Under the pieces are notes generated by a model. It saw only the letters and a program-made list of their open reading frames with translations. It did no database searches and was not told the origin of the DNA. From Candidatus Hydrogenedentota bacterium (GTDB taxonomy: Bacteria > Hydrogenedentota > Hydrogenedentia > Hydrogenedentales > SLHB01): DNA of 64,000 nucleotides. The position numbers and the translations under genes are program-made. The stretch lies in the NCBI GenBank assembly GCA_029552745.1, contig JAKPDK010000167.1, positions 7,622 through 71,621 of the forward strand. Reading direction: 5' to 3'. Below are positions 3,790-57,033 of this stretch, in pieces; the stretch's first letter is position 1; every line of letters begins with the position of its first letter.

Positions 3790-3885
3790 CGCCCTCCTGC
3801 GCTAGGTCCTCGTTGTCATTGCGAGGAGTGCCATAGGCACGACGCGGCAATCCCCTCGGAAAATCGAGGATTACCCGCCTCTGTC
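3790..3885. repeat. solo copy of the palindromic MITE-like element (GTTGTCATTGCGAGGAG...GGCAATCCCCTCGG core)
   Basis: 'cgttgtcattgcgaggagtgccataggcacgacgcggcaatcccctcgg' matches the 97-bp unit of the 14.2-kb array. Intergenic between hisI and the BNR gene. Confidence 0.6.
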
Positions 3886-8292: not shown

Positions 8293-9723
8293 ATGCCTTT
8301 TGTAAAACGTCACGCTACCTTGATCGGGTTCGTGGAAGCGGTACTGGATATCGCTTGTATTGTTGCGGGGCATGCCACGGTGATTTACTGGACTACGCGG
8401 CCGACGGACTGGGGTGCCTTCGTGGAACGTTTCTGGGAGCACGTGGGGTATGTGCTGATCTTTTGTGTTGTCTGGATTGGGGCAGCAATGGACCAGCGCC
8501 TTTTTGCATCGCGGCGTGGCGAGACCTTACGGGAACAATTGACCTCGATTTGCAAAGCCGTCGGTATCACGGTGGTATTCACGGGCTTTTTCATTGTTTT
8601 CTTTTCACGACGTTCTTTGGATCAATCCTTTTTATTGTATGCGAGTGCCTGCACATTGGTGCTTCTGATTGTCTACCGGGGACTCGGGCGGTTGTTGATC
8701 TGGCGCGTGCGGCGGCGGGGGTACAACTACCGCCAGATTCTCATCATCGGGGGAAACGAACGGGCACGTCATTTGGTAGATTTGATGGTCAGTCAGGGTT
8801 GGCATGGGTATAAGCTTGCCGGTCTGCTCGATGACGACCCCGACCGTGCAAAATACTTGGCGGATTACAACGTGCCCTATTTGGGACGGCTTGACGAATT
8901 GGAAAATGTTTTGCTTTCACATGTTATTGATGAGGTGTATGTTTGCCTGCCGGTGCGAGCATATTACGAAAAAATTACCAGTATGGCACATCTGTGCGAA
9001 GGCATCGGTATGCCCATCCGCATGATTGCCGACCTGTTTCCGCTGCGCATCGCGACAAGTCGCGTAAAGCAATTTGGGGATATTCCTTTGTTATCTCTGT
9101 CTGCAGTGCCAGAGGCAGAGATTCAATTATTCTTAAAACGCACCATTGACATTGTCATATCATTGTTGTTTTTGGTTTGCGTCGCATCTTGGCTGTTCCC
9201 AATTATTGCCTTGTTGATCAAACTGGATTCCAAAGGTCCCGTATTCTTCTTGCAGGAACGGGTTGGACTAAATCAACGTAGGTTCAAAATGATTAAATTC
9301 CGATCGATGGTTGCCGACGCCGAAGAACGAAAACGACTTTTGGAACAGATGAACGAGGCGGATGGGCCCGTTTTCAAGATTCGTCGCGACCCACGTGTCA
9401 CCCGCGTAGGGCGATGGCTGCGCAAGTATAGCATTGATGAAATGCCCCAGTTTATCAACGTGTTCTTGGGACATATGAGTCTCGTGGGACCGCGACCGCC
9501 CATTCCGGAAGAAGTAGCAAAATATACCTGGGACCAACGTCGGCGCCTTTCGGTTCGTCCTGGTCTGACTGGTTTACAACAAGTGAGCGGACGTAGCGAC
9601 CTTTCTTTTGACCAATGGGTGGAACTTGACCTGGCTTATATTGACAACTGGTCGCTGATGCTGGATTTTCGGATCCTCCTGCGTACCTTTGAGGCGGTTG
9701 TTCTTGCGCGTGGAGCGGCGTAA
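8293..9723 (+). CDS. polyprenyl-phosphate hexose-1-phosphate transferase (WbaP/WcaJ-like bacterial sugar transferase), exopolysaccharide initiating enzyme
   Basis: N-terminal TM helices. The C-terminal bacterial sugar-transferase domain shows '[14 protein letters not shown]...[24 protein letters not shown]...[21 protein letters not shown]'. The ATG at 8293 is preceded by GAAGGGG; the track ORF begins at an upstream TTG. Confidence 0.8.
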
Positions 9724-13852: not shown

Positions 13853-14185
13853 ATTATGCCATTCTCCTGCCGCCCCAAAAAGTCTCGCTTACAGGTTTCT
13901 AGGCGGACATTTTACGCAAAAAACCGCCGCTTGTTTCACCGCAACGGGCGCGATGTAGTCTGAAAATCAGCCCGCTACACACTGCGGCAAAAAAGCCTCC
14001 GCATTTTGCCAAAAAACCCGCAGAATTTTAACGCGTAACCTTACGTGAGAGCAAAACGTTCGGCACGGACTCCCTCTTTTTGGACACTTTGGATAAACGG
14101 GTCCCAGCGAACTTCGGTACGAGGCGTGTCTAGTCAGTCTAATTTTGAAGCACCCCGCGCTACTTGCCCCCAAAAACGCCCTTTT

Positions 14186-15495
14186 CGCTTGTCATTGCGA
14201 CGAGCGGCGTCAGGCACGACGTGGCAATCCCCTTGGGATTTCGGGGATTAGCATGCCCTAGGTCCTCTTGCGCTACGTCTCCCACGTTGTCATTGCGAGG
14301 AGTGCCGCAGGCACGACGTGGCAATCCCCTCGGGATTTCGGGGATTAGCATGCCCTGGGTCCTCTTGCGCTACGTCTCCTCCGTTGTCATTGCGAGGAGC
14401 CCCGCAGGGGCGACGCGGCAATCCCCTCGGGATTTCGGGGATTAGCATGCCCTGGGTTCTCTTGCGCTGCGTCTCTGGCGCTGTCATTGCGAGGAGTGCC
14501 GGTAGACACGACGCGGCAATCCCCTCGGGAGTTCGGGGATGACCACGCCCTGGGTTCCCGTGCGCTACGCGGTTGAGGGGATTGCTTCGTCGCTTCGAAG
14601 ACTCGCTCCTCGCAATGACACCGCGGGGGACATCAAACCCAACAAGATTCATTGAAACCCCTCCCTGCCGTCCCTTGTAGGGGCGAGCCCCCGTGCTCGC
14701 CCTCCCTTGTGCCTGCGCAGAACTACGTTTTCCGAGCATCCCATGTTTTTCCCCGTAGGGGCAAAATTGGTTGGGCAACCACGGGGGTTGCCCCTACACA
14801 TGTTCAGAATAGCCTTATTTTGTCCATTCCGTCCACCTCTCCTTGCGAGAAGTGCCGTTAGGCACGACGTGGCAATCCCCTTAGGAATTCGGGGATGACC
14901 ATGCCCTGGGTTCTCTTGCGCTACGCGGTTGAGGGGATTGCTTCGTCGCTTCGGGGACTCGCTCCTCGCAATGACACGGCGGGGGACAATAAACCCAACC
15001 GGATAGGGTGAAACCACTCCCTGCCATCCCTTGTAGGGGCGAGCCCCTGTGCTCGCCCTGCCAGTCCCTGCCCAAAACTACCTTCTTCGCGCATTCCACG
15101 TTTCCCCCGTAGGGGCGAGATTGGTTGGGCAACCACAGGGGGTTGCCCCTACTCATGTTCAGAATAACCTTATTTCGTCCATTCCGTCCACCTCTTCTTG
15201 CGAGGAGTGCCGGTAGGCACGACGTGGCAATCCCCTTGGGATTTCGGAATGACCATGCCCGGGGTTCTCTTGCGCTACGCGGTTGAGGGGATTGCTTCGT
15301 CGCTTCGAAGACTCGCTCCTCGCAATGACAACCACAAATGCCGGCGTAAGACGGGCAAGGCATGCCTCGGCCGTACAACGAAGGATGGGGACATTAGGCG
15401 CAACGCGTTGCGCCCTATCTTAAGCCCGGCGGTTGTCCCCATGATCCCCGAGGAGATTGCCGCGTCGTACCTGGCGGCAGTCCTCGGAATGACGG
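14186..15495. repeat. complex tandem array of the palindromic MITE-like element: about four tandem 97-bp units (14190-14490), then 2.5 copies of a ~360-bp composite unit, plus a degenerate terminal copy
   Basis: The unit 'gttgtcattgcgaggagtgccgcaggcacgacgtggcaatcccctcgggatttcggggattagcatgccctgggtcctcttgcgctacgtctcc' is repeated head-to-tail. Further right, the inverted partner 'gaggggattgcttcgtcgcttcgaagactcgctcctcgcaatgaca' recurs at ~14570, ~14930 and ~15280, with internal palindromes 'tgtaggggcgagcccccgtgctcgccc' and 'ggttgggcaaccacgggggttgcccctac'. There are no unique spacers. Confidence 0.85.
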
Positions 15496-32254: not shown

Positions 32255-32445
32255 CACCACGCTTCTCCCCGCGAGTGCCGCCCGGGGACGAATCTTTTTA
32301 CCCAGAACCCTACGTTGTCATTGCGAGGAACCCCGCCATTCCCACACCTTTTTCTCGAACCCTACGTTGTCATTGCGAGGAGCCCCGAAGGGGCGACGTG
32401 GCAATCCCCTCAGGTATTCGAAAATGCCCCGGGACCCTGCCTTAT
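32255..32445. repeat. MITE-like palindromic element copy (two 'gttgtcattgcgagga' cores) in the V-ATPase operon upstream region
   Basis: 'ccctacgttgtcattgcgaggaaccccgcc...ccctacgttgtcattgcgaggagccccgaaggggcgacgtggcaatcccctcagg'. Confidence 0.7.
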
Positions 32446-35955: not shown

Positions 35956-38313
35956 ATGCAGAAAGAAATAGAACATATGTTGGTCCCATCTAAAGATTCC
36001 CTCCGGACGCGGGAATTACTGCTACATAGCGCGGTCTTGGTCGCGTTACTTGTTTTTGTATTCCCCAAAGTCTTCTTCTTGGGACATGTGATTGCCCCGG
36101 GCGACATTCTGTTCCAGTGTCCGCCGTGGCGTGATTACGCCCCGCCGGGATGGGAACGTCCGGCAAATCGGCTTATGTCCGACGTGCTCACGGCCTTTTA
36201 TCCGTATTACGCTATTTCCCTTCATGCCTTGCAGCATAACGAGTGGCCTCTTTGGAATCCCTTTGAACTTGCGGGTGTCCCTCTCATGGCGAATTATCAG
36301 TCCGCGGTGTTCTACCCGCCACGGCTGCTGCACGTACTTTTCGGGTTACGATGGGGGACTACGTTTTATATCCTAGCGAAACTCTGGCTATGCGGCATGA
36401 CAGCCTACCTATGCGCGAGGGTTTTGGGATTGCGGCGTCCGGCAGCACGATTCTTGTCGGTTGGATGGATGTTCGCCAGTTATAACCTCATCTGGTGCAA
36501 TTGGTCGCTTCCAGACGTGAGTGCATGGTTGCCGGTGGTCTTCATGGGTACCGAGCAGATCCTCGCTCAGGCGTATCGTCGTGGTTTCTTCGCCCTCGCT
36601 TTAGGCGGTACGTTGCTTTTGTTAGCTGGGCATCCCGAAACGGCGTTCACGATGGGGCTGGGCGTGGGCATTTATTTTCTGTGCCGTCTGATATACGAAC
36701 GTCGTCCCGTCATCGATTGGCTTCGGGCAGGAGGCGTTTGCCTCGCCGGTTGGGGACTCGCTATTGCCGTTAGTGCAGCCCAGATTCTGCCGTTTTTGGA
36801 GTATCTCGTTCATTGTTCCACGTTCATGGAACGGGTACAGGAACAAAAAATGACCTGGCTTCCAGCGAGCGTGTCCCTCCTTTTCTGGGTGCCGCGCTTT
36901 TTCGGCACAAGCGCCGAGGGAAACTACTGGGGAGCGATTAACTCCAACCTATACGCCATGGTATACCCGGGAATTCCCGTTTGGGTTGCGATCGGGGTGC
37001 TCATACCGTCCATGCGGGCAGAGCGCACGGAGCGGGCGCGCGCCATAGCCTTGGTCACCTCATGCCTTTTATGTTGCGCGTTTGCCTTTGAAGTCTATCC
37101 GTTCTCCCTGATCAGTCGGTTGCCGGTTTTCAGTTCCCTTATCATCGCCTATCACGTCGCCTTTCCCGTGTTCGCTATTCCCCTGTTAGGCGCGATTGCG
37201 ATGGATCGTTGGTTCGAAAAACCCCGAACGTGGGGCGCGTTGATTTGGGTTGGTTTGTGGGCAATCCCCGTCTTGCTCTTGGCAGCATTCCTGCTGCATT
37301 TCTTTGGTCCCGTCATTCGCAGTGCCCGCCTGGGGGACTACGTCCGCTTCCAGCTGCTGGTTGCCGTGGCATTAGCCGTAGTCTCCACGCTCCTCTTGGC
37401 GACAGGCTCCTGGAGAAACGCCTCGCGCTGGGCGCCTGCTCTGCTTACCGTTCTCCTCGCGATAGACCTGGGATTTGCCAATCGCGGATTGAACCCCACT
37501 ATGCCCGCAAAAGACGTATTTCCCGAAACGCAATTGACAACCTTTCTCAAGAATCAACCGCAGCCTTGTCGGGTGGGTACCGGGGAAGGTAACATTGCCT
37601 CGGGACTAGTCACGGTGTACGGCATCGAAGAATGGCTCGGTTACGATGGGTTGTATCCGGAACGCATCATCCGTTTTCAGAAAACCTTAGGGGAAAATTT
37701 CTGGAAGGCAATCGAACCGGCGGCTTCGATTCAGTTTTACCTTCATGACCCGCGGTTCGAACCGGTGTTTCCCCTTGACAAAACCGGCGCCCATGAACGG
37801 GTTGGACAATTCAATGGACTGGAAGTATACCGAAACCGCCGCGCTCTTCCCCGTGCATTTCTAGTGAACCAGGCGGAAATCATCTCGGATAAAAACGCTT
37901 TATTTTCCCGCATGATGGAATCATCGTTCCGACCGGAAAACGTTGTTCTTTTGGAACGTGCCCCCGAGAAATGCTCCTTGCCTACGCCTTCGGCGGGGTT
38001 TCAGGGCAACGCGCGAATCCTAGAACACACCGCGACCCGTTGCCTTCTGGAGACGGAGACAAATGCGCCGGCTGTGCTAGTTTTGGCGGATGCGTACTAC
38101 CCCGGCTGGACGGCACGACTGGATGGACAACCCGCAGAAATACTCCCCGCCTATTACATTTTCCGGGCTGTGGTCGTCCCGGAAGGCAATCACCGTGTGG
38201 AATTTACTTATTTTCCTATGAGTCTACGAATCGGATTGGCGATAAGCGCAGTGGGACTTGTTTTCGGCGTTTTCTTGGCTGTTACTACAAGACGTCGCCC
38301 ATCAACGACCTAG
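35956..38313 (+). CDS. YfhO-family polytopic membrane protein (putative glycosyltransferase / lipid-linked glycan handling)
   Basis: 785 aa with >12 TM helices. The C-terminal soluble domain 'ADAYYPGWTARLDGQPAEILPAYYIFRAVVVPEGNHRVEFTYFP' matches the YfhO C-terminal pattern. Confidence 0.55.
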   Translation: MQKEIEHMLVPSKDSLRTRELLLHSAVLVALLVFVFPKVFFLGHVIAPGDILFQCPPWRDYAPPGWERPANRLMSDVLTAFYPYYAISLHALQHNEWPLWNPFELAGVPLMANYQSAVFYPPRLLHVLFGLRWGTTFYILAKLWLCGMTAYLCARVLGLRRPAARFLSVGWMFASYNLIWCNWSLPDVSAWLPVVFMGTEQILAQAYRRGFFALALGGTLLLLAGHPETAFTMGLGVGIYFLCRLIYERRPVIDWLRAGGVCLAGWGLAIAVSAAQILPFLEYLVHCSTFMERVQEQKMTWLPASVSLLFWVPRFFGTSAEGNYWGAINSNLYAMVYPGIPVWVAIGVLIPSMRAERTERARAIALVTSCLLCCAFAFEVYPFSLISRLPVFSSLIIAYHVAFPVFAIPLLGAIAMDRWFEKPRTWGALIWVGLWAIPVLLLAAFLLHFFGPVIRSARLGDYVRFQLLVAVALAVVSTLLLATGSWRNASRWAPALLTVLLAIDLGFANRGLNPTMPAKDVFPETQLTTFLKNQPQPCRVGTGEGNIASGLVTVYGIEEWLGYDGLYPERIIRFQKTLGENFWKAIEPAASIQFYLHDPRFEPVFPLDKTGAHERVGQFNGLEVYRNRRALPRAFLVNQAEIISDKNALFSRMMESSFRPENVVLLERAPEKCSLPTPSAGFQGNARILEHTATRCLLETETNAPAVLVLADAYYPGWTARLDGQPAEILPAYYIFRAVVVPEGNHRVEFTYFPMSLRIGLAISAVGLVFGVFLAVTTRRRPSTT

Positions 38314-39081
38314 AACATTTTGGACTCGGCGCAACAACTCCTGATGGACAGCCGGATTTCCCGCTACAACCACCGGCGGCACCGTCCGTTCGGGCTTGTT
38401 GAAACGTAGTTCGTTTCCAAAAGCATCCGTGATACGGCCGCCCGCCTCTTCAACAGCGCACGGTGCCCAGGCATAATCGTGTTCGCCTGCGCGGGACGCA
38501 TCCAGCACACACCCATCGATTTCACCTAAACATAACTGCACGATCTCGAGCGCCGGCAAGTAGTAAGCACGCGACCACGTCTTGAATGATTCAAATTCCT
38601 TGCCGTACGCCGAAATGCGGGCATCCTCAAACACACGACCAGAAACTCGAACCCGCTGTCCGTTGACAAAACACCCATCCCCCCGTCTGCTATATACGGT
38701 CAATCCCAACGCCGGGAAAAAGGCCGAGGATTCAATAGAAACCCCCTGATGACAACGCCCAATCAAAATACCAAATTCGGCTGAATTCCGGGCAAACAAC
38801 GAGGTGCCATCGATAGGGTCCACCAGCCATACCGTGTTTGCTTTCAGGCGAGTTAAGTCGTCCGGCGTCTCTTCCGAAAGCACCGGTTCATCCGGCACAT
38901 GAGTCCGTATGCCTTCCGTTACCACCCGGTTCACCTCGAGATCTGCCGTGGTCACGATAGAACCATCGGGTTTTTGGTAAACCTCAAATTGCCCCATGTA
39001 ATAGTGCATGGCAACATCGCCCGCTTGTTTTATCAGAGCTATCAACCACTCCCGCGCTGCGTCTTTCAAAACGTTTTTCAC
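38302..39081 (-). CDS. inositol monophosphatase family protein / 3'(2'),5'-bisphosphate nucleotidase CysQ-like
   Basis: 'WLVDPIDGT' metal-binding motif and 'EETPDD' in an IMPase fold, 259 aa. Convergent 12-nt overlap with yfhO. Confidence 0.7.
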   Translation of the reverse strand: MKNVLKDAAREWLIALIKQAGDVAMHYYMGQFEVYQKPDGSIVTTADLEVNRVVTEGIRTHVPDEPVLSEETPDDLTRLKANTVWLVDPIDGTSLFARNSAEFGILIGRCHQGVSIESSAFFPALGLTVYSRRGDGCFVNGQRVRVSGRVFEDARISAYGKEFESFKTWSRAYYLPALEIVQLCLGEIDGCVLDASRAGEHDYAWAPCAVEEAGGRITDAFGNELRFNKPERTVPPVVVAGNPAVHQELLRRVQNVLGR

Positions 39082-39439
39082 GAAAACCCCTTTCTCAACC
39101 TTTCCAACACTTCGTGGGGAGCCTCAAGGAAATCAAAGTATCCTATCAAAACGCTCACGACCTATTCGTCCCCGCCATTTTCGTGACAACCCCCCTTGTT
39201 TCGAGAACACCAAACGCTGCGTAAACCTGCACCCCAATAAACAGCACCGCCGGAAGCTTTTCACAGCCTCCGGCGACGTGCTAGCCTTAGAGTCCTCCTC
39301 TTGTAAGCTCCGTACTAATTTTACCTTCATCCGATACCGATTGCCAAATCTTACCTATGTGTTTCACTTTCTCCCCTCTTAGCGCGCGCATGTTAACCAC
39401 AAGCAGAAACGCAGCGAGATGAACTGCCCCAAAAAGAGT

Positions 39440-39745
39440 TCGTTGTCATTGCGAGAAATGGGTGTTCAACACGACGAAGCAATCTCCGCCTCTTTTTGTA
39501 GGGGCGAGACATGCCTCGCCCTTTCACGTCCTTGCCCGGGACGCGCCTCTTGTTGCCGATTGCCCAGCATTGTCATTGCGAGGAGCGAATCTTCGAAGCG
39601 ACGAAGCAATCCCCTCACCCGCGCAGCGGAACAGGACGTATTGCTTTACCGTGGCTATCCCCCAATTCTCGAGGGGATTGCCACGTCGCCCCTGCGGGGC
39701 TCCTCGCAATGACAACCTGGGGGACATAGCGCAAGCGGGTCTTGA
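39440..39745. repeat. MITE-like palindromic element, composite copy immediately upstream of the csm6-like/cas6-like cassette
   Basis: 'gttgtcattgcgagaaatgg...acgacgaagcaatctcc...gtaggggcgagacatgcctcgccc...cattgtcattgcgaggagcgaatcttcgaagcgacgaagcaatcccctc...gaggggattgccacgtcgcccctgcggggctcctcgcaatgacaacc'. Confidence 0.75.
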
Positions 39746-40004
39746 GGGAGACTGGGTTGGCCCCAAATTACCAAGGGCATTGCCAGGGCGTTTTTTCGGC
39801 ATCCCTCGCAAGAACAATGCTAAGGCCCCGACAAGAATCATATGGGCAAAGGACTTTCTGTTGTTGCGTTGAATCTCCTTAAGAAAGTGGCGCAACATAG
39901 TACCACTGTTTTGAACACAATCGTTCATATATGGGGCAAGGTAGATATGGGGTTTTGACGTATGGTGCTGTTCACCTTACGTGTCAGATTCGAGGAAACG
40001 CATC

Positions 40005-41369
40005 ATGAAAATCTGCATTATTGCCAACGTGGGGCAGCGGGATTTGATGATAGATGGTAAGCCCCTGCCTTCGGAGAAATTACGGGAGTACTCCAAAGAA
40101 ATAAACGAAAATTATGAATCTCAAAAAGGCAGGCTTAGCGCGCCTTTACTAGAACCCGCTATGAATCTAATCTTGAACGAGTTTGACAATAAAACAGAAA
40201 TTAAAATGACTCTCATCGCGACCAACCAGGAAGACCTAAACTTTCAGAAGGGGGACACCATATACTGCGCAAAAGTTTTGGAGAAGCTTTTGAAAGCAAA
40301 GTTCTCGAAAAAAACGAGCTTGGATATAAGAATCAGAGAACTAAAGTCTCCTCCGAACATGTATGATGCAATGATCCCTTGTTATATGGGTTGGGCGCAA
40401 AGCAGAAAGTTTCAAACGGAGAATGCCGACCGTGTGTATCTGATATGTACCGGAGGAACGCCGGCTTGCAACACCGCATTGCTTTTGGCAGGTATCAGCG
40501 TATTCCGCCATAAATGCGAGGCTATTTACATTAATGAAAGAGACAAGAATCCGTATCCTTTACAAGTCGGCAAGCAGGTACTCGGTTTGTACCGAAAAGA
40601 GCGTCTCAATGCCTTGTTAAAGAGGCATGATTTTGCCGGTATCGCCGCCGACACAGAACAAGCACAGGAGGTGCGCGATGTTGCTGGCGCTGCCGCGGCG
40701 CGATTAAATTTCGACTTCGAAAAGATGAAGAGGCATTTGGCACCCCTCGTCCGCGAGCCTTTTCTTCGCTCCCTCATAGGGTCTCTGTGGGATGAAGCGA
40801 ATACATTGACAAAAAACGACTGTGAACGGGTAAAGAAACTACGAGAACTCTATTGGAATGCCGTTTTGAAATGGGAGGCAGAAGAATGCGCGGATTTTCT
40901 CGGAAGGGTGTTTCGGTTGCGCGAAGAAGCCCTGCGTGTGGGGGTCGAAAGGGTCAGCGGGATTGCCCTCGATAGTACGCAAGCAAATGACAAAAAGCTT
41001 TGGGATTGGGTAAGAGAAGATCCTGAATTGGAACAAAAAATGGGAAACAAGAGCGGCTCACACCCCAGTACAGAGGTCCTTTCGAAAGTTTTGGAGATAG
41101 AATCTGCCAAATTTCCCGAGGTCCGAGGTCTTTACGAGACATCGGAGTGGTTCAGGGATTTATCCCAACTGCGTAATAAAAGCATCATAGCCCACGACAC
41201 ACAAGGGGTCTCCAAAGAAAATATTCTCGAGAAAATCACTGGAACGGAAGAAACCATTTTTGACCAATTGAAGCGACTTTGCGAGTTGTTGGGTGTGGAG
41301 ACGGGTGAAAACCCCTACGATGAATTTGCAAAAGCCATCCACCAAATCGACGAAAAGGTGAATCGCTGA
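40005..41369 (+). CDS. Csm6/Csx1-like CARF-HEPN family protein (putative cyclic-oligoadenylate-activated RNase), orphan
   Basis: The track ORF starts at GTG 39981; the ATG at 40005 with GAGGAAA upstream is more likely. N-terminal 'KICIIANVGQRD' and Gly-rich 'VYLICTGGTPACNTALLLAG' resemble the CARF ligand-binding core. C-terminal 'LRNKSIIAHD' fits the HEPN Rx4-6H motif. The first ~600 bp are visibly A/T-rich. Motif-level call only. Confidence 0.5.
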   Translation: MKICIIANVGQRDLMIDGKPLPSEKLREYSKEINENYESQKGRLSAPLLEPAMNLILNEFDNKTEIKMTLIATNQEDLNFQKGDTIYCAKVLEKLLKAKFSKKTSLDIRIRELKSPPNMYDAMIPCYMGWAQSRKFQTENADRVYLICTGGTPACNTALLLAGISVFRHKCEAIYINERDKNPYPLQVGKQVLGLYRKERLNALLKRHDFAGIAADTEQAQEVRDVAGAAAARLNFDFEKMKRHLAPLVREPFLRSLIGSLWDEANTLTKNDCERVKKLRELYWNAVLKWEAEECADFLGRVFRLREEALRVGVERVSGIALDSTQANDKKLWDWVREDPELEQKMGNKSGSHPSTEVLSKVLEIESAKFPEVRGLYETSEWFRDLSQLRNKSIIAHDTQGVSKENILEKITGTEETIFDQLKRLCELLGVETGENPYDEFAKAIHQIDEKVNR

Positions 41370-42325
41370 TGCCGCTGGAACGTTTAACCGCTACCGAACA
41401 GGATGTTTGTTTCCGGGCGTTGGAATCGTTGCGTCTACCGGCGTATAAAGGCTCTACCTTCCGCGGCGCTTTTGGCCATGCCTTCAAACACGTGGCGTGC
41501 GCCTTAAAGACCAACGTCTGTGCCAAATGTCTGTTGCGACATCGCTGCGCCTATAGTGTGTGTTTCGAAACTCCCGTGCCCCAAGAAGCCGAGATCCTGC
41601 GCAAGTATCCTTTTGCGCCGCATCCGTTTGTATTGGAACCGCCTCAAGACGACCGCCGGGAGTACGAACCGGGCGCAGAACTGCAGGTGCGGCTGTATTT
41701 GGTGGGAAAAGCACAGGAATATTTGCCTCATTTTATATACGCCTTCGAAGAGATGGGCAAACGGGGACTGGGGAGGGAACCGGGCAAAACGGAACTGGTG
41801 TGGGTACGGAGCCGCCGGAACGGGGAAACCAACTTGATTTATGACGGCAATGCCCAAGAACTCGTGGGTGCCCCTATGGTTTGGTCAGCTCATGAGATTG
41901 CCACGCGATCATCGACCCTGGCGGGAATACCTTTGCGCCTCATTTTTGAAACGCCTACAAGGGTTAAATCCGAAGGTAGATTGGCCGCGGCACCCGACTT
42001 TGCCACACTCGCCCCAAGTCTGCTGCGGCGGTTGAACATGTTGCATTACTTCTTTTGCGGCGGAGAATTTGCCCGCGACATTCACCCACTGTTGGACGCC
42101 GCACGTGGCGTGAAAACCTTGGAGACCGAGATGCGCTGGGTGGATTGGACGCGCTATTCCGCACGGCAAGATGCTACCATGCAGTTGGGTGGATTCGTCG
42201 GCACAATGACGATTAGCCCGCCGCCCGAAAATGTCCTCGTTTATATCCTCTGGGGAGAATTGTTGCATCTCGGCAAGGGCGGCGCGTTCGGCCTAGGAAA
42301 ATACCGCATCGAACCGATCGAGTAG
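41369..42325 (+). CDS. Cas6-like RAMP endoribonuclease with N-terminal Cys cluster (putative Zn finger)
   Basis: 318 aa. Its ATG overlaps the upstream stop (cgcTGATGccg). The Cas6-like N-terminus is 'LPAYKGSTFRGAFGHAFKHV'. The Cys cluster is 'CALKTNVCAKCLLRHRCAYSVC'. The glycine-rich loop 'LGKGGAFGLGKY' sits 6 aa from the C-terminus, as in Cas6 (GhGxxxxxGhG). Confidence 0.5.
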   Translation: MPLERLTATEQDVCFRALESLRLPAYKGSTFRGAFGHAFKHVACALKTNVCAKCLLRHRCAYSVCFETPVPQEAEILRKYPFAPHPFVLEPPQDDRREYEPGAELQVRLYLVGKAQEYLPHFIYAFEEMGKRGLGREPGKTELVWVRSRRNGETNLIYDGNAQELVGAPMVWSAHEIATRSSTLAGIPLRLIFETPTRVKSEGRLAAAPDFATLAPSLLRRLNMLHYFFCGGEFARDIHPLLDAARGVKTLETEMRWVDWTRYSARQDATMQLGGFVGTMTISPPPENVLVYILWGELLHLGKGGAFGLGKYRIEPIE

Positions 42326-42342
42326 AACATGCTGAAACTTGC

Positions 42343-43284
42343 TTATCGGTGCAAGAGTTCCCATGCGTGAACGAGGCGGGTTAGCAATGCGTTCGTCGGA
42401 CAGGCAACCCCGCTTTCTGCACCCATCCGTGCGATGGCGCCGTTCAACGCATCGATTTCCGTTCTGCGTCCGAGTTTGAAATCTTCCCGCATGCTTGCAT
42501 AATGTGCCGCTGTCGGCGGAATAAGATCCTCAAACAGGTGATGGATATACTCCTCTGCGGTGGAAGGTTTCAGGACGACATGGCGCGCCGCTGCCGTCGC
42601 ATAGAGCTCCCGCACGATCTCACCCATCATCACGCGCGTATCCTCGGCTTCCAATAATTTGCCGTATGGTACGTCCAGTAAGGCAGAAAGTGGGTTCAAC
42701 GCACAGTTATACGCCACTTTTGCCCAAAGCACCGTCGCAATTTCTTCCGTATACACAGTGGGAATACCCGCATCATTCATTGTCTGCGCCATCGCACGTA
42801 CCCTTTCCACCGGCGCGTCGGCGCTATAAACGCCCAGCGCGGTGGGTTGAGCGATCACCGTAATCTCAATCCAACCGGGTTCACACACACGAACCCCATA
42901 GATAGCCCGCGCACCCACCGTGCGAGACCAGCCAAACACGCCCGCTATCGTTTCGGCATTACCCAGGCCATTCTGATATGAACATACGAGTGTGTCTGGA
43001 GCGACTACCGGCAAAATCGTTCGAGCCGCCGATGCGGTATCGTATGACTTCACCGTAATAAACACCCAATCAAAGTGGGAATAGGGGACATCCACCACTT
43101 GGGTGCAGACCTGCAAACGGCACGCGCGATGTTCTCCCCAAATACCGGTGATGCGTAAACCGTCCCGCGCAATCGCGCTCATATGGGATTCTCTGCCTAT
43201 CAGAACAACATCGTGACCCGCTAGAGACATAAAACCGCCCACCGCGCTACCGATCGCCCCGGCTCCCATAACCAAAACACGCAT
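42343..43284 (-). CDS. panE: 2-dehydropantoate 2-reductase (ketopantoate reductase)
   Basis: 'MRVLVMGAGAIGSAVGGFMSLAGHDVVLIGR' Rossmann N-terminus, with the C-terminal ApbA_C pattern 'KVAYNCALNPLSALL...YASMREDFKLGRRTEIDALNGAI'. Confidence 0.8.
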   Translation of the reverse strand: MRVLVMGAGAIGSAVGGFMSLAGHDVVLIGRESHMSAIARDGLRITGIWGEHRACRLQVCTQVVDVPYSHFDWVFITVKSYDTASAARTILPVVAPDTLVCSYQNGLGNAETIAGVFGWSRTVGARAIYGVRVCEPGWIEITVIAQPTALGVYSADAPVERVRAMAQTMNDAGIPTVYTEEIATVLWAKVAYNCALNPLSALLDVPYGKLLEAEDTRVMMGEIVRELYATAAARHVVLKPSTAEEYIHHLFEDLIPPTAAHYASMREDFKLGRRTEIDALNGAIARMGAESGVACPTNALLTRLVHAWELLHR

Positions 43285-43618: not shown

Positions 43619-46345
43619 ATGTCAAAAGCCAGTCTCGCCCTTCTCTCGATGTCAATTGTATTATTTAGCGCAACGGCTGATATTCAAACCACTCCGGATC
43701 CGGATACCTGGGTCGTCAATGGTCCCATTTACTCCATGGCGGCAACCCCCTCCGCTGTCTATTTAGCTGGGTTGTTTTCCAGGGTCAGTCCTTACACAGG
43801 TGGTGCCGTACCTTTGAGCACCACAAACGGGACAACCGTGGGAAGCTTTGCCAAAGTCAACGGCCAGGTATTCGCTATCGAACCCGATGGGTCGGGCGGT
43901 TGGTTTATCGGTGGAGACTTCACTTCTGTCGGGTCTCAGAACCGAAACCACCTCGCTCATATCCTGCCTGACGGTACGGTTGATGGGGCATGGGTAGCCG
44001 ACGCTGACAATGTCGTTTGGGCGTTGGCAGTTTCAGGGAGCACGCTGTATGTTGGCGGACAATTTGACACCATTGGCGGCGAATCGCGCAGCCGCATTGC
44101 TGCATTGGATAAGTCTACAGGTGCCGTTACAACATGGAACCCAGCCGCCAACGATATCGTGGGAACACTGGTGGTATCAGGCAGCGTCGTTTATGCCGGT
44201 GGCAATTTTACAATCATCGGCGGACAGAACCGAACGTGTCTCGCTGCATTAGATACCTCGTCCGGGGGTGCGACAACCTGGAACCCCAGTCCTAACGGTG
44301 TGGTTTATAGCATTGCCATAGATGGGGACACCATTTACGTCGGTGGTCAATTCACGAGCATAGGTGGGGCGACACGTAATCGAATTGCCGCGATCAGCGC
44401 GACGACGGGCACGGCCACGGCGTGGAATCCCGACGCCAATGGCACCGTTCGTGTAGTCAAACTCGCCGGGGGGAATGTATACGCCGGCGGGCAGTTTACC
44501 ACTATTGGTGGACAATCGCGAACCTACCTAGCCGCCTTGGATCCTAGCACGGGGCTCGCAACGTCGTGGAATCCACAGGCGAGCAATTACGTATATGCCC
44601 TGGTGACTGCTGACGGAATACTGTACGTTGCTGGCGCTTTTGGTCAAGTTGCGGGGCAGTCCCGAGATTTCCTCGCCGCATTTGACATATCATCCGGAAA
44701 TCTCACCGATTGGAATCCCGGCGCGGATGACACGTGCGCCGCTCTAGCGGCTGCGGGAAACGTCGTCTACGTCGGAGGATTGCTCGCCGGAGTTGGGGGT
44801 GTTGTACGTAACAATATTGCGGCGATCGACCCCCTCAGCGGCGCGGCGACCTCTTGGAATCCAAATGCCAATGAAAGGGTCAATGTTCTCGCTGTTTCCG
44901 GAGACACGGTCTATGCCGGTGGCGCATTTACTGAAATCGGAGGACAAGTGAGAAATCGTCTAGCCGCCCTTGATACGACAGCAGGCGCTGCAACTTCCTG
45001 GAATCCAGATCTCAATAACTGGGTGTATGCTTTGGTACCTCAAGGGGATACAGTCTACGTCGGCGGGGAATTCACCTCGGTGGGTACAACCACACGAAAC
45101 CGTATCGCAGCTATTAATACCACGACAGGACTTCGCACGTCGTGGAATCCTGACGCAAACGACTGGGTAATTGCGCTGGCGTACGCCGACAATACCATTT
45201 ACGCTGGCGGAAGATTCACACAGATTGGAGGCCAAGCGCGCGGCAGGCTTGCTGCACTAAATACAACCGATGGGAGCGCCACTTCGTGGACGGCTGATGC
45301 AAACTGGTACGTATACACATTATTAGCGCATGAAAACACCTTATATGTTGGAGGCGCTTTTACTACACTCAGCGGCCAAGCTCGGAGCGGAATCGGCGCC
45401 TTGAACCGCACCACGGGAGCGGCGCTCGGTTTTAATCCTACGGCAAATGACTATGTGTCGGCTTTGGCATGGCTTTATGGGAAACTGTACGTTGGCGGCG
45501 GGTTCACCCAGATTGGCGGCGTCGCGCGTTTGCGTTGGGCGGAACTCGACCCAACAACCGGCACACCCACTTCCTTTAACGCAGGGGCTGACGCGCCCGT
45601 TGTCACGCTCGCAACCTCACCAAGCGCCTTATATGTAGGAGGGACATTTTACAAAATCGGCGGCAACGCCCGCGGTGCATTTGCTCAATTCAATACATTA
45701 CTCGGAACGGTCACCGTCGATGTGACGCCCAATACAGCGAGCTGGACATTGGCGGGTCCGCCGGGATTTGAAGGCAACGGCACAACGTATACCGGCGACC
45801 ACACGTTTACCGATGCTCCAATAGGTGACTACACGTGGACAGGGAATGCCCTGGCGGGGTACAACACACCTGCAACACAGACTCAGACACTTACCGACGG
45901 TGGTACGATCACGTTTACCAAGACCTGGACGCCGCAGGTAGGCACGGTGGTAGTGGATGTGACGCCGGATACGGCAAACTGGACGTTGGCAGGTCCGCCG
46001 GGATTTGAAGGCAACGGGCAGACCTACACGGGCGACCATATGTTTACCGATGCTCCAATAGGTGACTACACGTGGACAGGGAGTGCCCTGGCGGGGTACA
46101 ACACACCTGCCACACAGACCCAGACACTGACCAACGCCGGTACGATTACCTTCACAAAGACGTGGACTGCTACCGGTGGTGGAGGGGGCACCCCTGGGGG
46201 TTGTACGAAACAGTTGGCGATGGGCGCGGAGGGTTCCCAGACGTATGCCACGTTGCCGGCACCGGCAGATGTGATGTTGTTGCTGGGCAGCGGCGCTGCG
46301 CTTGCATTAGCGGGTAGAATAGGTAACAGACGGAGGAAGAAGTAG
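43619..46345 (+). CDS. secreted beta-propeller repeat protein (DUF5122/delta-60-type repeats) with two Ig-like domains and a VPLPA/PEP-CTERM-like C-terminal sorting tail
   Basis: 908 aa with a signal peptide. There are at least 10 copies of the ~50-aa repeat 'VYVGGxFTxIGGQxRNRLAALDxxTGAATxWNPxANxxVxAL'. The C-terminus 'TLPAPADVMLLLGSGAALALAGRIGNRRRKK' has a motif, a hydrophobic helix and a basic tail. Confidence 0.7.
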   Translation: MSKASLALLSMSIVLFSATADIQTTPDPDTWVVNGPIYSMAATPSAVYLAGLFSRVSPYTGGAVPLSTTNGTTVGSFAKVNGQVFAIEPDGSGGWFIGGDFTSVGSQNRNHLAHILPDGTVDGAWVADADNVVWALAVSGSTLYVGGQFDTIGGESRSRIAALDKSTGAVTTWNPAANDIVGTLVVSGSVVYAGGNFTIIGGQNRTCLAALDTSSGGATTWNPSPNGVVYSIAIDGDTIYVGGQFTSIGGATRNRIAAISATTGTATAWNPDANGTVRVVKLAGGNVYAGGQFTTIGGQSRTYLAALDPSTGLATSWNPQASNYVYALVTADGILYVAGAFGQVAGQSRDFLAAFDISSGNLTDWNPGADDTCAALAAAGNVVYVGGLLAGVGGVVRNNIAAIDPLSGAATSWNPNANERVNVLAVSGDTVYAGGAFTEIGGQVRNRLAALDTTAGAATSWNPDLNNWVYALVPQGDTVYVGGEFTSVGTTTRNRIAAINTTTGLRTSWNPDANDWVIALAYADNTIYAGGRFTQIGGQARGRLAALNTTDGSATSWTADANWYVYTLLAHENTLYVGGAFTTLSGQARSGIGALNRTTGAALGFNPTANDYVSALAWLYGKLYVGGGFTQIGGVARLRWAELDPTTGTPTSFNAGADAPVVTLATSPSALYVGGTFYKIGGNARGAFAQFNTLLGTVTVDVTPNTASWTLAGPPGFEGNGTTYTGDHTFTDAPIGDYTWTGNALAGYNTPATQTQTLTDGGTITFTKTWTPQVGTVVVDVTPDTANWTLAGPPGFEGNGQTYTGDHMFTDAPIGDYTWTGSALAGYNTPATQTQTLTNAGTITFTKTWTATGGGGGTPGGCTKQLAMGAEGSQTYATLPAPADVMLLLGSGAALALAGRIGNRRRKK

Positions 46346-46410: not shown

Positions 46411-46454
46411 ATGGGTCTATGTTTTTCTCAGTATCTTTACTTTCTTGCCACGCT

Positions 46455-46965
46455 CCTCCCGGTTGTCATTGCGAGGAGCCCCGAAGGGGCGACGTGGCAA
46501 TCCCCTTAGGATTTTGGGGATGACCATGCCCTGGGTTCTCTTGCGCAGCGCGGTTGAGGGGATTGCTTCGTCGCGTCGGAGACTCCGCTCCTCGCAATGA
46601 CAACGCGGGGGACCTCAAACCCAACGGGCTAGGGTGAGACCCTTCCCTTCCATCCCCTGTAGGGGCGAGCCCCCGTGTTCGCCCTTCCCCGTCCACGGCA
46701 GAACTACCTTCACCGCCCATTCTTGGCCTTCCCTGTAGGTGCGAGGCATGCCTCGCACCCCGCCGTTACGCGATTCAGCCCCCCTTTGTCCCCCTGCACG
46801 CGGGGGGATGGAAGATTAAAACAGGCTGCAAACCTATTCGTATTCGTATCGCCTGTGGGTGCCAGGGGTCTAACATTGGGCAACCACGGGGGGTTGCCCC
46901 TACGATGTTCAGAATAACCCGTTTTGCCCATTGCCTCCGGGTGTCATTGCGGGCACCGTAGGGCA
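46455..46965. repeat. MITE-like composite element (~500 bp; same family as the 14.2-kb array)
   Basis: 'gttgtcattgcgaggagccccgaaggggcgacgtggcaatcccctta...ggttgaggggattgcttcgtcgcgtcggagactccgctcctcgcaatgaca...ctgtaggggcgagcccccgtgttcgccc...tgtaggtgcgaggcatgcctcgcacc...ggcaaccacggggggttgcccctacgatgttcagaataac'. Confidence 0.8.
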
Positions 46966-53369: not shown

Positions 53370-53720
53370 CTGCTCCTCCCCGTTGTTGTCATTGCGAGGA
53401 GCGAGTCCCCGAAACGACGAAGCAATCCCCTTAGGAATTGGGTATAACCCCGGACTCTGTTTTATCCTTCGCCCTCTTGCGTCTTTTGTGGGGGCGCACT
53501 GCTGTGCGCCCTTCCTCCTCCTTCCCACATACAACCTCTTCCCACCCATGGGCCCCTTGTTGTCATTGCGAGAAGCGAGCCTCCGAAGCGACGAAGCAAT
53601 CCCCTCAACCGCGTAGCGCAAGAGAGCGCAGGACAGAGGCGGAGTCCTCTCCGAACTCCCGAGGGAATTGCCACGTCGTCCCTAAGGCACTCCCCGCACT
53701 GACGGTGTGAGGGACGTAGC
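53370..53720. repeat. MITE-like composite element copy
   Basis: 'gttgttgtcattgcgaggagcgagtccccgaaacgacgaagcaatcccctta...gggggcgcactgctgtgcgccc...gttgtcattgcgagaagcgagcctccgaagcgacgaagcaatcccctcaacc...gagggaattgccacgtcgtccc'. Confidence 0.75.
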
Positions 53721-53772
53721 GCTCGAAAGCACGCTGCACAGGTTAGCGGTTTGCAAGTCGCCAACTCGCTTT

Positions 53773-56839: not shown

Positions 56840-56950
56840 GCAGAAGGCGTTGCGCCCTATTGCGACGCCCGGGTTTTCTCGCTGATTCCCGAGGGAATTG
56901 CCACCTCGTGCCTTTGGCACTCCTCGCAATGACAGCGGGGGGACGGATCG
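56840..56950. repeat. MITE-like element, short copy
   Basis: 'ggcgttgcgccctattgcgacgcccgg' (compare 15400 'gcgttgcgccctatcttaagcccgg') followed by 'cccgagggaattgccacctcgtgcctttggcactcctcgcaatgaca'. Confidence 0.6.
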
Positions 56951-57033
56951 GTGTCGTTAAGAACTGTGTTTTGCGCGTGGAGACCCGCTGTAACGACACC
57001 GTGTCCGTTATTTGTTAAGACGGGTAAGTGCGC

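Follow-up and report, generated by a model that had tools for sequence, protein, structure and literature searches.

In the type III-A CRISPR-Cas system of Staphylococcus epidermidis RP62a, the genes lie in the order cas1-cas2-cas10-csm2-csm3-csm4-csm5-csm6-cas6, with the gene for the CARF-HEPN protein beside cas6 at the end of the module. The Cas6 that type III systems obtain in trans usually comes from another CRISPR-cas locus. According to Makarova et al. 2025 (PMC12669027), most type III systems apparently depend on a Cas6 supplied in trans, and homologues of CARF proteins abound away from CRISPR-cas loci. Here we describe a pair of genes, a csx1/csm6-family gene and a cas6 gene, in a 64-kb stretch of DNA from a Candidatus Hydrogenedentota bacterium (contig JAKPDK010000167.1; the whole stretch is called the window, and positions are counted from its first letter). 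It is likely, at a probability of roughly 0.8, that the two genes make up the csm6/csx1-cas6 end of a type III-A (Csm) system, a terminal module detached from the remainder, which is located elsewhere in the same genome. The gene set would then be that of the S. epidermidis operon, but with the last two genes at a separate site, between a CysQ-family gene and panE, and with proteins that are remote in sequence from the staphylococcal ones (48 bits against a cut-off of 150 for TIGR02672, and 15 against 58.65 for TIGR01877). As in other type III systems with a trans-acting Cas6 (PMC12669027), the effector locus lacks cas6 and the processing gene is found elsewhere in the genome; here, however, the source would be a free-standing csx1-cas6 cassette among housekeeping genes, and cas1-cas2 and an array are still present at the remote type III-A locus.

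The remote locus was found by probing with a Cas10 from a complete, related locus, which retrieved a type III-A Cas10/Csm1 (P0073, 823 aa) in metagenome-assembled genomes (MAGs) of Hydrogenedentes. In this locus (L020), the genes gap-pgk-rpsO-pnp-M16 peptidase-dut-ppk are followed by cas10-csm2-csm3-csm4-csm5-cas1-cas2 and then by an array that runs to the end of the contig. PADLOC recognizes Cas10a (E=1e-108 to 4e-124), Csm2, Csm3, Csm4, Csm5, Cas1, and Cas2. The Cas10 retains its HD motif (LLHDIGKF) and its GGDD motif (YAGGDDLF), and so the cyclase motif that is the prerequisite for an RNase switched by cyclic oligoadenylates (cOA) is present in the cognate Cas10. The array begins about 290 bp past cas2 and is built on a 37-nt repeat, CTTAACCCCCTAGACCTGATGAAGAAGGGATAGAAAC. 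A scan of JGI metagenomes for this repeat returned two contigs only, the L020 locus and the end of a 165-kb contig (L103), the latter from metagenome 3300009712, where a copy of the window locus (L002) sits on a 304-kb contig. On L103, the array ends with a degenerate repeat and is followed by the gene for a 450-aa protein without a family match and then by uvrA. On neither flank of the remote locus and its array (L020, L103) is there a cas6, csx1/csm6, or CARF gene. The pair in the window is thus very probably not an orphan, because the cas10-csm-cas1-cas2-array locus assigned to the same genome lacks exactly csx1 and cas6.

An earlier reading of the window, made from its sequence only, had presented the pair as an orphan cassette. 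That description stands for the window itself. There is no CRISPR array in the 64 kb by Tandem Repeats Finder or by a repeat finder, and the core of the cognate repeat has no match there at three or fewer mismatches. A tblastn search of the window with the organism's own Cas10, Csm3, Csm4, Csm5, Cas1, and Cas2 gave nothing below E=0.4, so that cas1 and cas2 are missing as well as the cas10 and csm genes whose absence had been noted, and PADLOC assigned no Cas family to any of the 33 other large open reading frames. These encode housekeeping functions (a V-type ATPase, anthranilate synthase, glycosidases, a sulfatase, methyltransferases), and neither Rfam nor a tRNA scan gave a match in the window. 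The adjacency of cas6 to a CRISPR array or a cas operon, which is seen for its homologues, is therefore absent from these 64 kb. What does not stand is the orphan status, given the complementary type III-A locus in the same MAG. Similarly, that reading had called the pair ordinary should it be embedded in a complete type III locus; it is not physically embedded, but the genome very probably contains the complementary locus, and in that sense the pair is ordinary.

That all of these parts reside in one genome is strongly supported by a shared locus-tag prefix, three binned MAGs, common assemblies, and composition. Positions 30005-51369 of the window match contig DAORYO010000005.1 of GCA_035359255.1, a Candidatus Hydrogenedentes MAG, with 100% identity across 21 kb, and the locus recurs in identical form on contigs as long as 304 kb in metagenomes of anaerobic samples. 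The identical Csx1 appears at NCBI as HOJ31921.1, HOL76314.1 (PKY35_04730), and HPO86142.1, and a single 90%-identity cluster of Cas10/Csm1 holds HOJ34391.1, HPO86902.1, and HOL78344.1/HOL78345.1 (PKY35_15110). The accession series thus pair as HOJ31921/HOJ34391, HPO86142/HPO86902, and HOL76314/HOL78344-5, that is, as three MAGs holding both proteins; since PKY35_04730 and PKY35_15110 carry the same locus-tag prefix, this Csx1 and this Cas10 belong to the same MAG. Furthermore, the Cas10 contig and the window locus are both present in ENA assembly ERZ27257437 and in JGI metagenome 3300025589, which, like 3300009712, comes from digester samples. In tetranucleotide composition, the contigs carrying cas10 and the array trailer correlate with the window at 0.85-0.88, as compared with 0.81-0.91 for 6-kb chunks of the window itself and 0.65-0.82 for other organisms. 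The cas10 contig and the window have no sequence in common except a short repeat fragment; therefore, the distance between the two loci exceeds 22 kb on one side and 40 kb on the other. A link between the contigs through the MITE-like repeats of the window (MITE, miniature inverted-repeat transposable element; described below) was also considered. It is weak and was not relied on, since the exact core of that repeat is absent from L020 and L103, where only a partial similarity of 46-72 nt is seen upstream of cas10.

The two genes of the pair are joined by a 1-nt overlap (TGATG), in which the last base of the csx1 TGA is the first base of the cas6 ATG. Two starts are available to csx1, a GTG at 39981 that would give 462 aa and the ATG at 40005 that gives 454 aa; the ATG is preferred because the alignment with the full-length Csx1 profile of PADLOC begins at the very first residue of the 454-aa protein. 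The G+C content of the csx1 region is 0.47 (40001-41000) versus 0.54 for the whole window, a mild deviation that fits a gene of mobile (cas) origin.

Sequence profiles and a structural model place the 454-aa protein in the Csx1/Csm6 group of CARF-HEPN proteins, with a predicted RNase function. It matches the PADLOC profiles Csx1 PDLC01509 (E=1.8e-81) and CARF1--CARF_HEPN PDLC01810 (E=3.7e-59) over their full length, several other CARF_HEPN profiles match, and the Pfam family PF09659 (Cas_Csm6_HEPN) is reached at 29.7 bits (cut-off 23.4). The Pfam CARF model Cas_APE2256 remains below threshold (13.8 bits versus 24.8). The TIGR02672 Csm6 equivalog is also not reached, its match being confined to the C-terminal half; consequently, the protein is assigned to a separate CARF-HEPN subfamily and not counted as orthologous to the Csm6 of TIGR02672. 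Across 39 aligned homologues, R390 and H397 of the HEPN motif (RNKSIIAH) are invariant, as are G150, G151, and N156 (GGTPACNTALLL) together with T73, Q75, D84, and T85 on the CARF side. A PDB sequence search found nothing at E<=1, and the fold of an AlphaFold2 model (mean predicted local distance difference test score, pLDDT, 92.5) was compared instead. The N-domain of the model is beta-alpha-beta, and Foldseek matches to Csm6, Csx1, and CARF ring nucleases cover it. The best PDB folds are the Csm6 of Enterococcus italicus (EiCsm6, 6tug), the Csm6 of Thermus thermophilus (TtCsm6, 5fsh/8jbc), and the Csm6' of Streptococcus thermophilus (StCsm6', 8pe3), which, like the Sulfolobus islandicus Csx1 (6qzt), have the CARF, helical, and HEPN architecture in common with the predicted fold. 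The TM-scores are 0.41-0.63 to the three Csm6 structures and 0.34 to the Sulfolobus Csx1. The R-x6-H motif is conserved as in the solved Csm6/Csx1 RNases, but identity in the structural alignments is just 13-16%. Both cA4-type and cA6-type proteins (activated by cyclic tetra- or hexa-adenylate) are among the top fold matches, and the ligand can therefore not be inferred from them.

The 318-aa protein is a Cas6 by family, predicted fold, and C-terminal loop, and cleavage of precursor CRISPR RNA is its predicted activity. It matches PADLOC Cas6 PDLC01477 over the full length (E=1.1e-98) and Pfam PF10040 (CRISPR_Cas6) at 57.3 bits (cut-off 25), and an identical NCBI protein is already named Cas6. 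It does not reach the TIGR01877 Cas6 equivalog and is thus assigned to a different Cas6 subfamily. The AlphaFold2 model (pLDDT 87, predicted TM-score 0.87) has two ferredoxin/RRM-like domains, and its top 36 Foldseek matches in the PDB are all Cas6 or Cas6-related, with 6dd5, 4ilm, 3zfv, and 4c9d at E values of 1e-13 to 1e-11. The double ferredoxin/RRM fold and the C-terminal glycine-rich loop are common to this protein and the solved Cas6 structures (the Cas6 domain of Marinomonas Cas6-RT-Cas1, 6dd5; Sulfolobus, 4ilm/3zfv; Thermus TTHB231, 4c9d; Pyrococcus, 3pkm). In an alignment of 31 sequences, G302, K303, F307, G308, and G310 of the loop (GKGGAFGLGKY, residues 302-312) are invariant, and so are C44, C54, and C60. 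These cysteines belong to a cluster, CX6CX2CX5C(X4C), that is inserted in the N-terminal RRM domain (Pfam PF27225, AF_1859_N; residues 44-65, window positions 41498-41563), where the confidence of the model is lowest. Unlike the solved enzymes, the Cas6 of the window has this extra conserved insertion, and it has no sequence-detectable relative in the PDB (nothing at E<=1). The subfamily defined by PF27225, PF10040, and the cysteine cluster has more than 780 members and may be a metal-binding variant of Cas6; literature searches on Zn-binding Cas6 and on type III systems of Hydrogenedentes gave nothing relevant. Such a widespread subfamily without a sequence-detectable solved relative is possibly worth structural work; otherwise, no new question is opened.

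Most of what the sequence-only reading had said of the two proteins has held. Both open reading frames, with their translational coupling, lie exactly where it had placed them, and the peptides it quoted (KICIIANVGQRD, LICTGGTPACNTALLLAG, RNKSIIAH, LPAYKGSTFRGAFGHAF, and GKGGAFGLGKY) are all present in the translations. Its cluster of five cysteines corresponds to C44/C51/C54/C60/C65. Profile searches, which it had proposed, uphold the Csx1/Csm6 and Cas6 identities with Pfam and PADLOC, and structure predictions, which it had likewise proposed, retrieve Csm6 and Cas6 folds (AlphaFold2 models, compared with the PDB by Foldseek). Accordingly, the CARF-like N-terminus and HEPN Rx6H motif of the first protein are borne out by PADLOC, the Pfam HEPN family, the invariant R390/H397, and a Csm6-like predicted fold, and the Cas6 hallmarks of the second by PADLOC, PF10040, the Cas6 fold, and the invariant glycine-rich loop.

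In other organisms, relatives of this pair are found within complete type III-A loci. In an unrelated assembly (L012-L014), the order is cas10-csm2-5, a 26-repeat array, and cas1-cas2-csx1-cas6, with the same 1-nt overlap; here, the homologues of the pair (Csx1 41% and Cas6 57% identical) are the last two genes of the locus. Another complete locus (L016) consists of cas10-csm2-5, an array, and csx1-cas6, and no cas1-cas2 is seen there. Where cas1-cas2 are present in such loci, the csx1-cas6 pair directly follows them. In a second Hydrogenedentes species, a single contig carries both cas10 and csx1, the latter eight protein accessions further on and past an array longer than 4 kb. Further pairs (L017-L019) had been considered as independent orphans; these were rejected, since a close sequence variant in that species (P0195, of the same 90% cluster) has csx1 eight genes after cas10 on one contig. 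In the wider clade of this Cas6, cas6 is often directly upstream of cas10 among the matches listed.

The repeats of these loci are related as well. The 3' half of the repeat of the remote array, GACCTGATGAAGAAGGGAT[A/C]GAAAC, is common to the arrays of complete type III-A loci in other organisms, and all four arrays (that of this organism, of L012-L014, of L016, and of the second Hydrogenedentes species) share GACCTGATGAA[G/A]AAGGGAT[A/C]GAAAC. Arrays beside more distant members of the Cas6 clade retain the core GACCTGAT / GACTTGATGAA. Because of this match across the arrays, the repeat of this organism is taken to belong to a family that travels with this Cas6 clade, the clade co-occurring with repeats that end in GACCTGATGAAGAAGGGAT[A/C]GAAAC. 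Folding of the repeat revealed only a weak conserved stem of 3 bp (CCU/AGG), on which no structural claim is based.

In related type III-A loci, an RtcR-like sigma-54 activator is encoded directly upstream of cas10, divergently from it in L012 (1-151) and L013 (355-1914) and in the same direction in L022 (8233-9783). A CARF-type sensor domain is a feature of the RtcR family of activators. Where the related loci have this gene, L020 has an unannotated 162-aa gene (9071-9559, minus strand); neither this gene, which lies before cas10, nor the 450-aa gene after the array trailer (L103 4096-5448, minus strand) has a Pfam or PADLOC match. These two could be unrecognized accessory genes or simply housekeeping genes.

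The detached arrangement itself is conserved. Orthologous pairs lie beside panE in at least two further lineages, L015 (Csx1 69-70% and Cas6 88% identical) and L009 (Csx1 46% and Cas6 68-70% identical), which is the outcome of the synteny comparison that the sequence-only reading had suggested. A 361-aa "Cas6" without a Pfam match in L009 had looked degenerate; it proved to be an artefact of a run of N in the contig. Between the window and L015, the ratio of nonsynonymous to synonymous divergence (dN/dS) amounts to 0.148 in csx1 and to 0.072 in cas6, the value of the housekeeping neighbour panE being 0.097, and the synonymous divergence (dS) is about 1.0-1.3; dS is saturated versus L009. Given the conserved linkage to panE and the low dN/dS at such a dS, the split is concluded to be old and both genes to have been kept by purifying selection.

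Taken together, these results have led to the following model for a system that is split in two. The Cas6 of the window would cut the transcript of the remote array within each 37-nt repeat, leaving a predicted 8-nt 5' handle, AUAGAAAC, and the resulting CRISPR RNAs (crRNAs) would be loaded into the Csm complex. Upon binding of a complementary invader transcript, the Palm/GGDD domain of Cas10 would make cyclic oligoadenylates, which would diffuse to the CARF domains of a dimer of the Csx1/Csm6-family protein and switch on its HEPN (R-x6-H) RNase. Once activated, this RNase would degrade RNA non-specifically, and the infected cell would be arrested. Both of the steps performed in trans would work through products that can diffuse, in one case a protein with RNA as its substrate and in the other a small-molecule messenger, and physical linkage to the effector locus would thus be dispensable. 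In this model, we infer the cleavage of the repeat by the window Cas6, the identity of the cyclic oligoadenylate, and the RNase activity of Csx1.

However, several points weigh against this interpretation. The co-residence of the two loci is based on MAG binning, the locus-tag prefix, shared assemblies, and composition rather than on a closed genome. In the PKY35 MAG, where Cas10 is on a contig of 16.6 kb, the annotation divides it into two partial proteins of 579 and 262 aa. The protein is intact (823 aa) in two other MAGs and in metagenome contigs, and the split is probably an artefact of assembly or a frameshift artefact; it could also be a disruption at the level of the strain. L103 could belong to a separate array built on the same repeat, and not to the array linked to cas10 as its trailer. 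The genome was inspected as fragments, and another cas6, CARF effector, or CRISPR-Cas locus is possible. The species is not among the at least 80 loci listed from a genome collection in a scan with the Cas6 alignment, where the best match to the Cas6 among the matches listed is 59% identical. In addition, H37 of the Cas6 is not conserved, H85 and H300 are, and the catalytic residue is not assignable.

Could the pair instead serve a different or an additional CRISPR-Cas locus, for example another type III system or one of type I, with the Cas6 shared between several arrays and the Csx1 answering to any Cas10? The fragmentary state of the genome leaves room for such a locus, it is described as common for loci to share a Cas6 (PMC12669027), and many 20-kb loci of the wider Cas6 clade have no III-A genes near cas6, at least with the limited tblastn queries used. 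Against this, the one locus that was found lacks exactly cas6 and csx1, its repeat is in the family associated with this Cas6 clade, and the metagenome scan for the repeat gave only the two ends of what is apparently one array; we consider this explanation unlikely. That the cassette has stayed beside panE, under strong purifying selection, in at least three lineages of Hydrogenedentes could also mean that it is more than a relocated accessory. A direct partnership of Cas6 and Csx1 is conceivable because their translational coupling is conserved, and if the cassette acts in lineages that have lost cas10, it would be a Cas10-independent CARF-HEPN/Cas6 module. We regard either as a long shot.

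Also judged very improbable is an autonomous two-gene defence or toxin module, with the Csx1 responding to another signal or regulated constitutively and the Cas6 acting on non-CRISPR RNA. In at least three lineages, the pair is linked to panE and surrounded by housekeeping genes, and for two of them, L015 and L009, no type III locus is known; this would suit such a module, as would the conserved coupling of csx1 with cas6 and the abundance of CARF homologues outside CRISPR-cas loci (PMC12669027). Yet the same MAG has a cyclase-competent Cas10 locus with an array and without the csx1 and cas6 functions, homologues 40-57% identical are part of canonical III-A loci, and the window shows no evident non-CRISPR substrate or alternative signal generator. 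The undescribed stand-alone module that the sequence-only reading had entertained is consequently not needed. Its suggestion of a decayed type III locus fares worse still. The lack of adjacent cas genes or an array, the slightly low G+C content of the csx1 region, and the MITE copies upstream might be taken as signs of a non-functional remnant left by the deletion of the other genes. Nevertheless, both frames are full length and retain all of the family-invariant residues, the catalytic and ligand-site motifs are intact, the dN/dS values (0.07-0.15) are like that of panE, and the arrangement is conserved at the dS of L015 and at the saturation of L009, so that decay is scarcely credible. Of the possibilities raised in that reading, it is the trans-acting pair for a type III system elsewhere in the genome that is supported, by a remote locus without cas6 and csx1.

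The positions of the pair and its surroundings are collected in Table 1. The neighbours are housekeeping genes, as had been described, the CysQ-like one lying beyond a MITE copy. The spacer upstream of the pair is inferred to hold its promoter. A promoter and terminator scan of 39000-42500 found nothing on the plus strand above the expectation from shuffled sequence, and no convincing sigma-70 match. Within the spacer is an element of about 147 bp with inverted ends (39570 TTGTCATTGCGAGGAGC ... GCTCCTCGCAATGACAA 39716), and the MITE-like copies there correspond to families D7, D8, and D10 of the repeat finder.

Table 1. The csx1-cas6 pair and adjacent features of the 64-kb window
Feature	Position	Strand	Remarks
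Inositol-monophosphatase/CysQ-family gene	38302-39081	-	Upstream neighbour
Upstream intergenic spacer, 0.9 kb	39082..40004		Promoter of the pair presumed; MITE-like copies at 39443-39732
csx1/csm6-family gene	40005..41369	+	454-aa CARF-HEPN protein, predicted cyclic-oligoadenylate-activated RNase
cas6 gene	41369..42325	+	318-aa predicted pre-crRNA endoribonuclease, Cys-cluster subfamily (Pfam PF27225 + PF10040)
Ketopantoate reductase PanE/ApbA gene	42343-43284	-	Downstream, convergent

The MITE-like family, with the core TTGTCATTGCGAGGAG...GCAATCCCC, inverted ends, and no Rfam match, is found throughout the window, at 3803-3873, 14185-15330, 32293-32427, 39443-39732, 46441-46955, 53386-53722, and 56878-56952. 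Its 11-nt core occurs in 17 copies in the 64 kb, as compared with 6 in 1.0 Mb of unrelated loci, and the copies at 14189-15330 are arranged in tandem, one period being 97 nt and another 356 nt. On the far side of panE, positions 43619-46345 encode a secreted-looking protein of 908 aa with DUF5122 beta-propeller repeats and a hydrophobic/basic C-terminal tail; its gene contains an internal tandem duplication of 237 nt (45704-46167) and is conserved beside panE in L015.

Thus, an "orphan" cas6 or CARF gene such as those in the window calls for a check of the rest of the genome before it is declared a new stand-alone system, since here the complementary locus lies on another contig of the same MAG. 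The present case adds one clear example of a type III-A system that is, in all likelihood, split in two, into a locus for the effector, adaptation, and array functions and a remote csx1-cas6 cassette. This split has been stable over considerable divergence in Candidatus Hydrogenedentes, which fits the idea that crRNA processing and cOA signalling work through diffusible components and need no genetic linkage.

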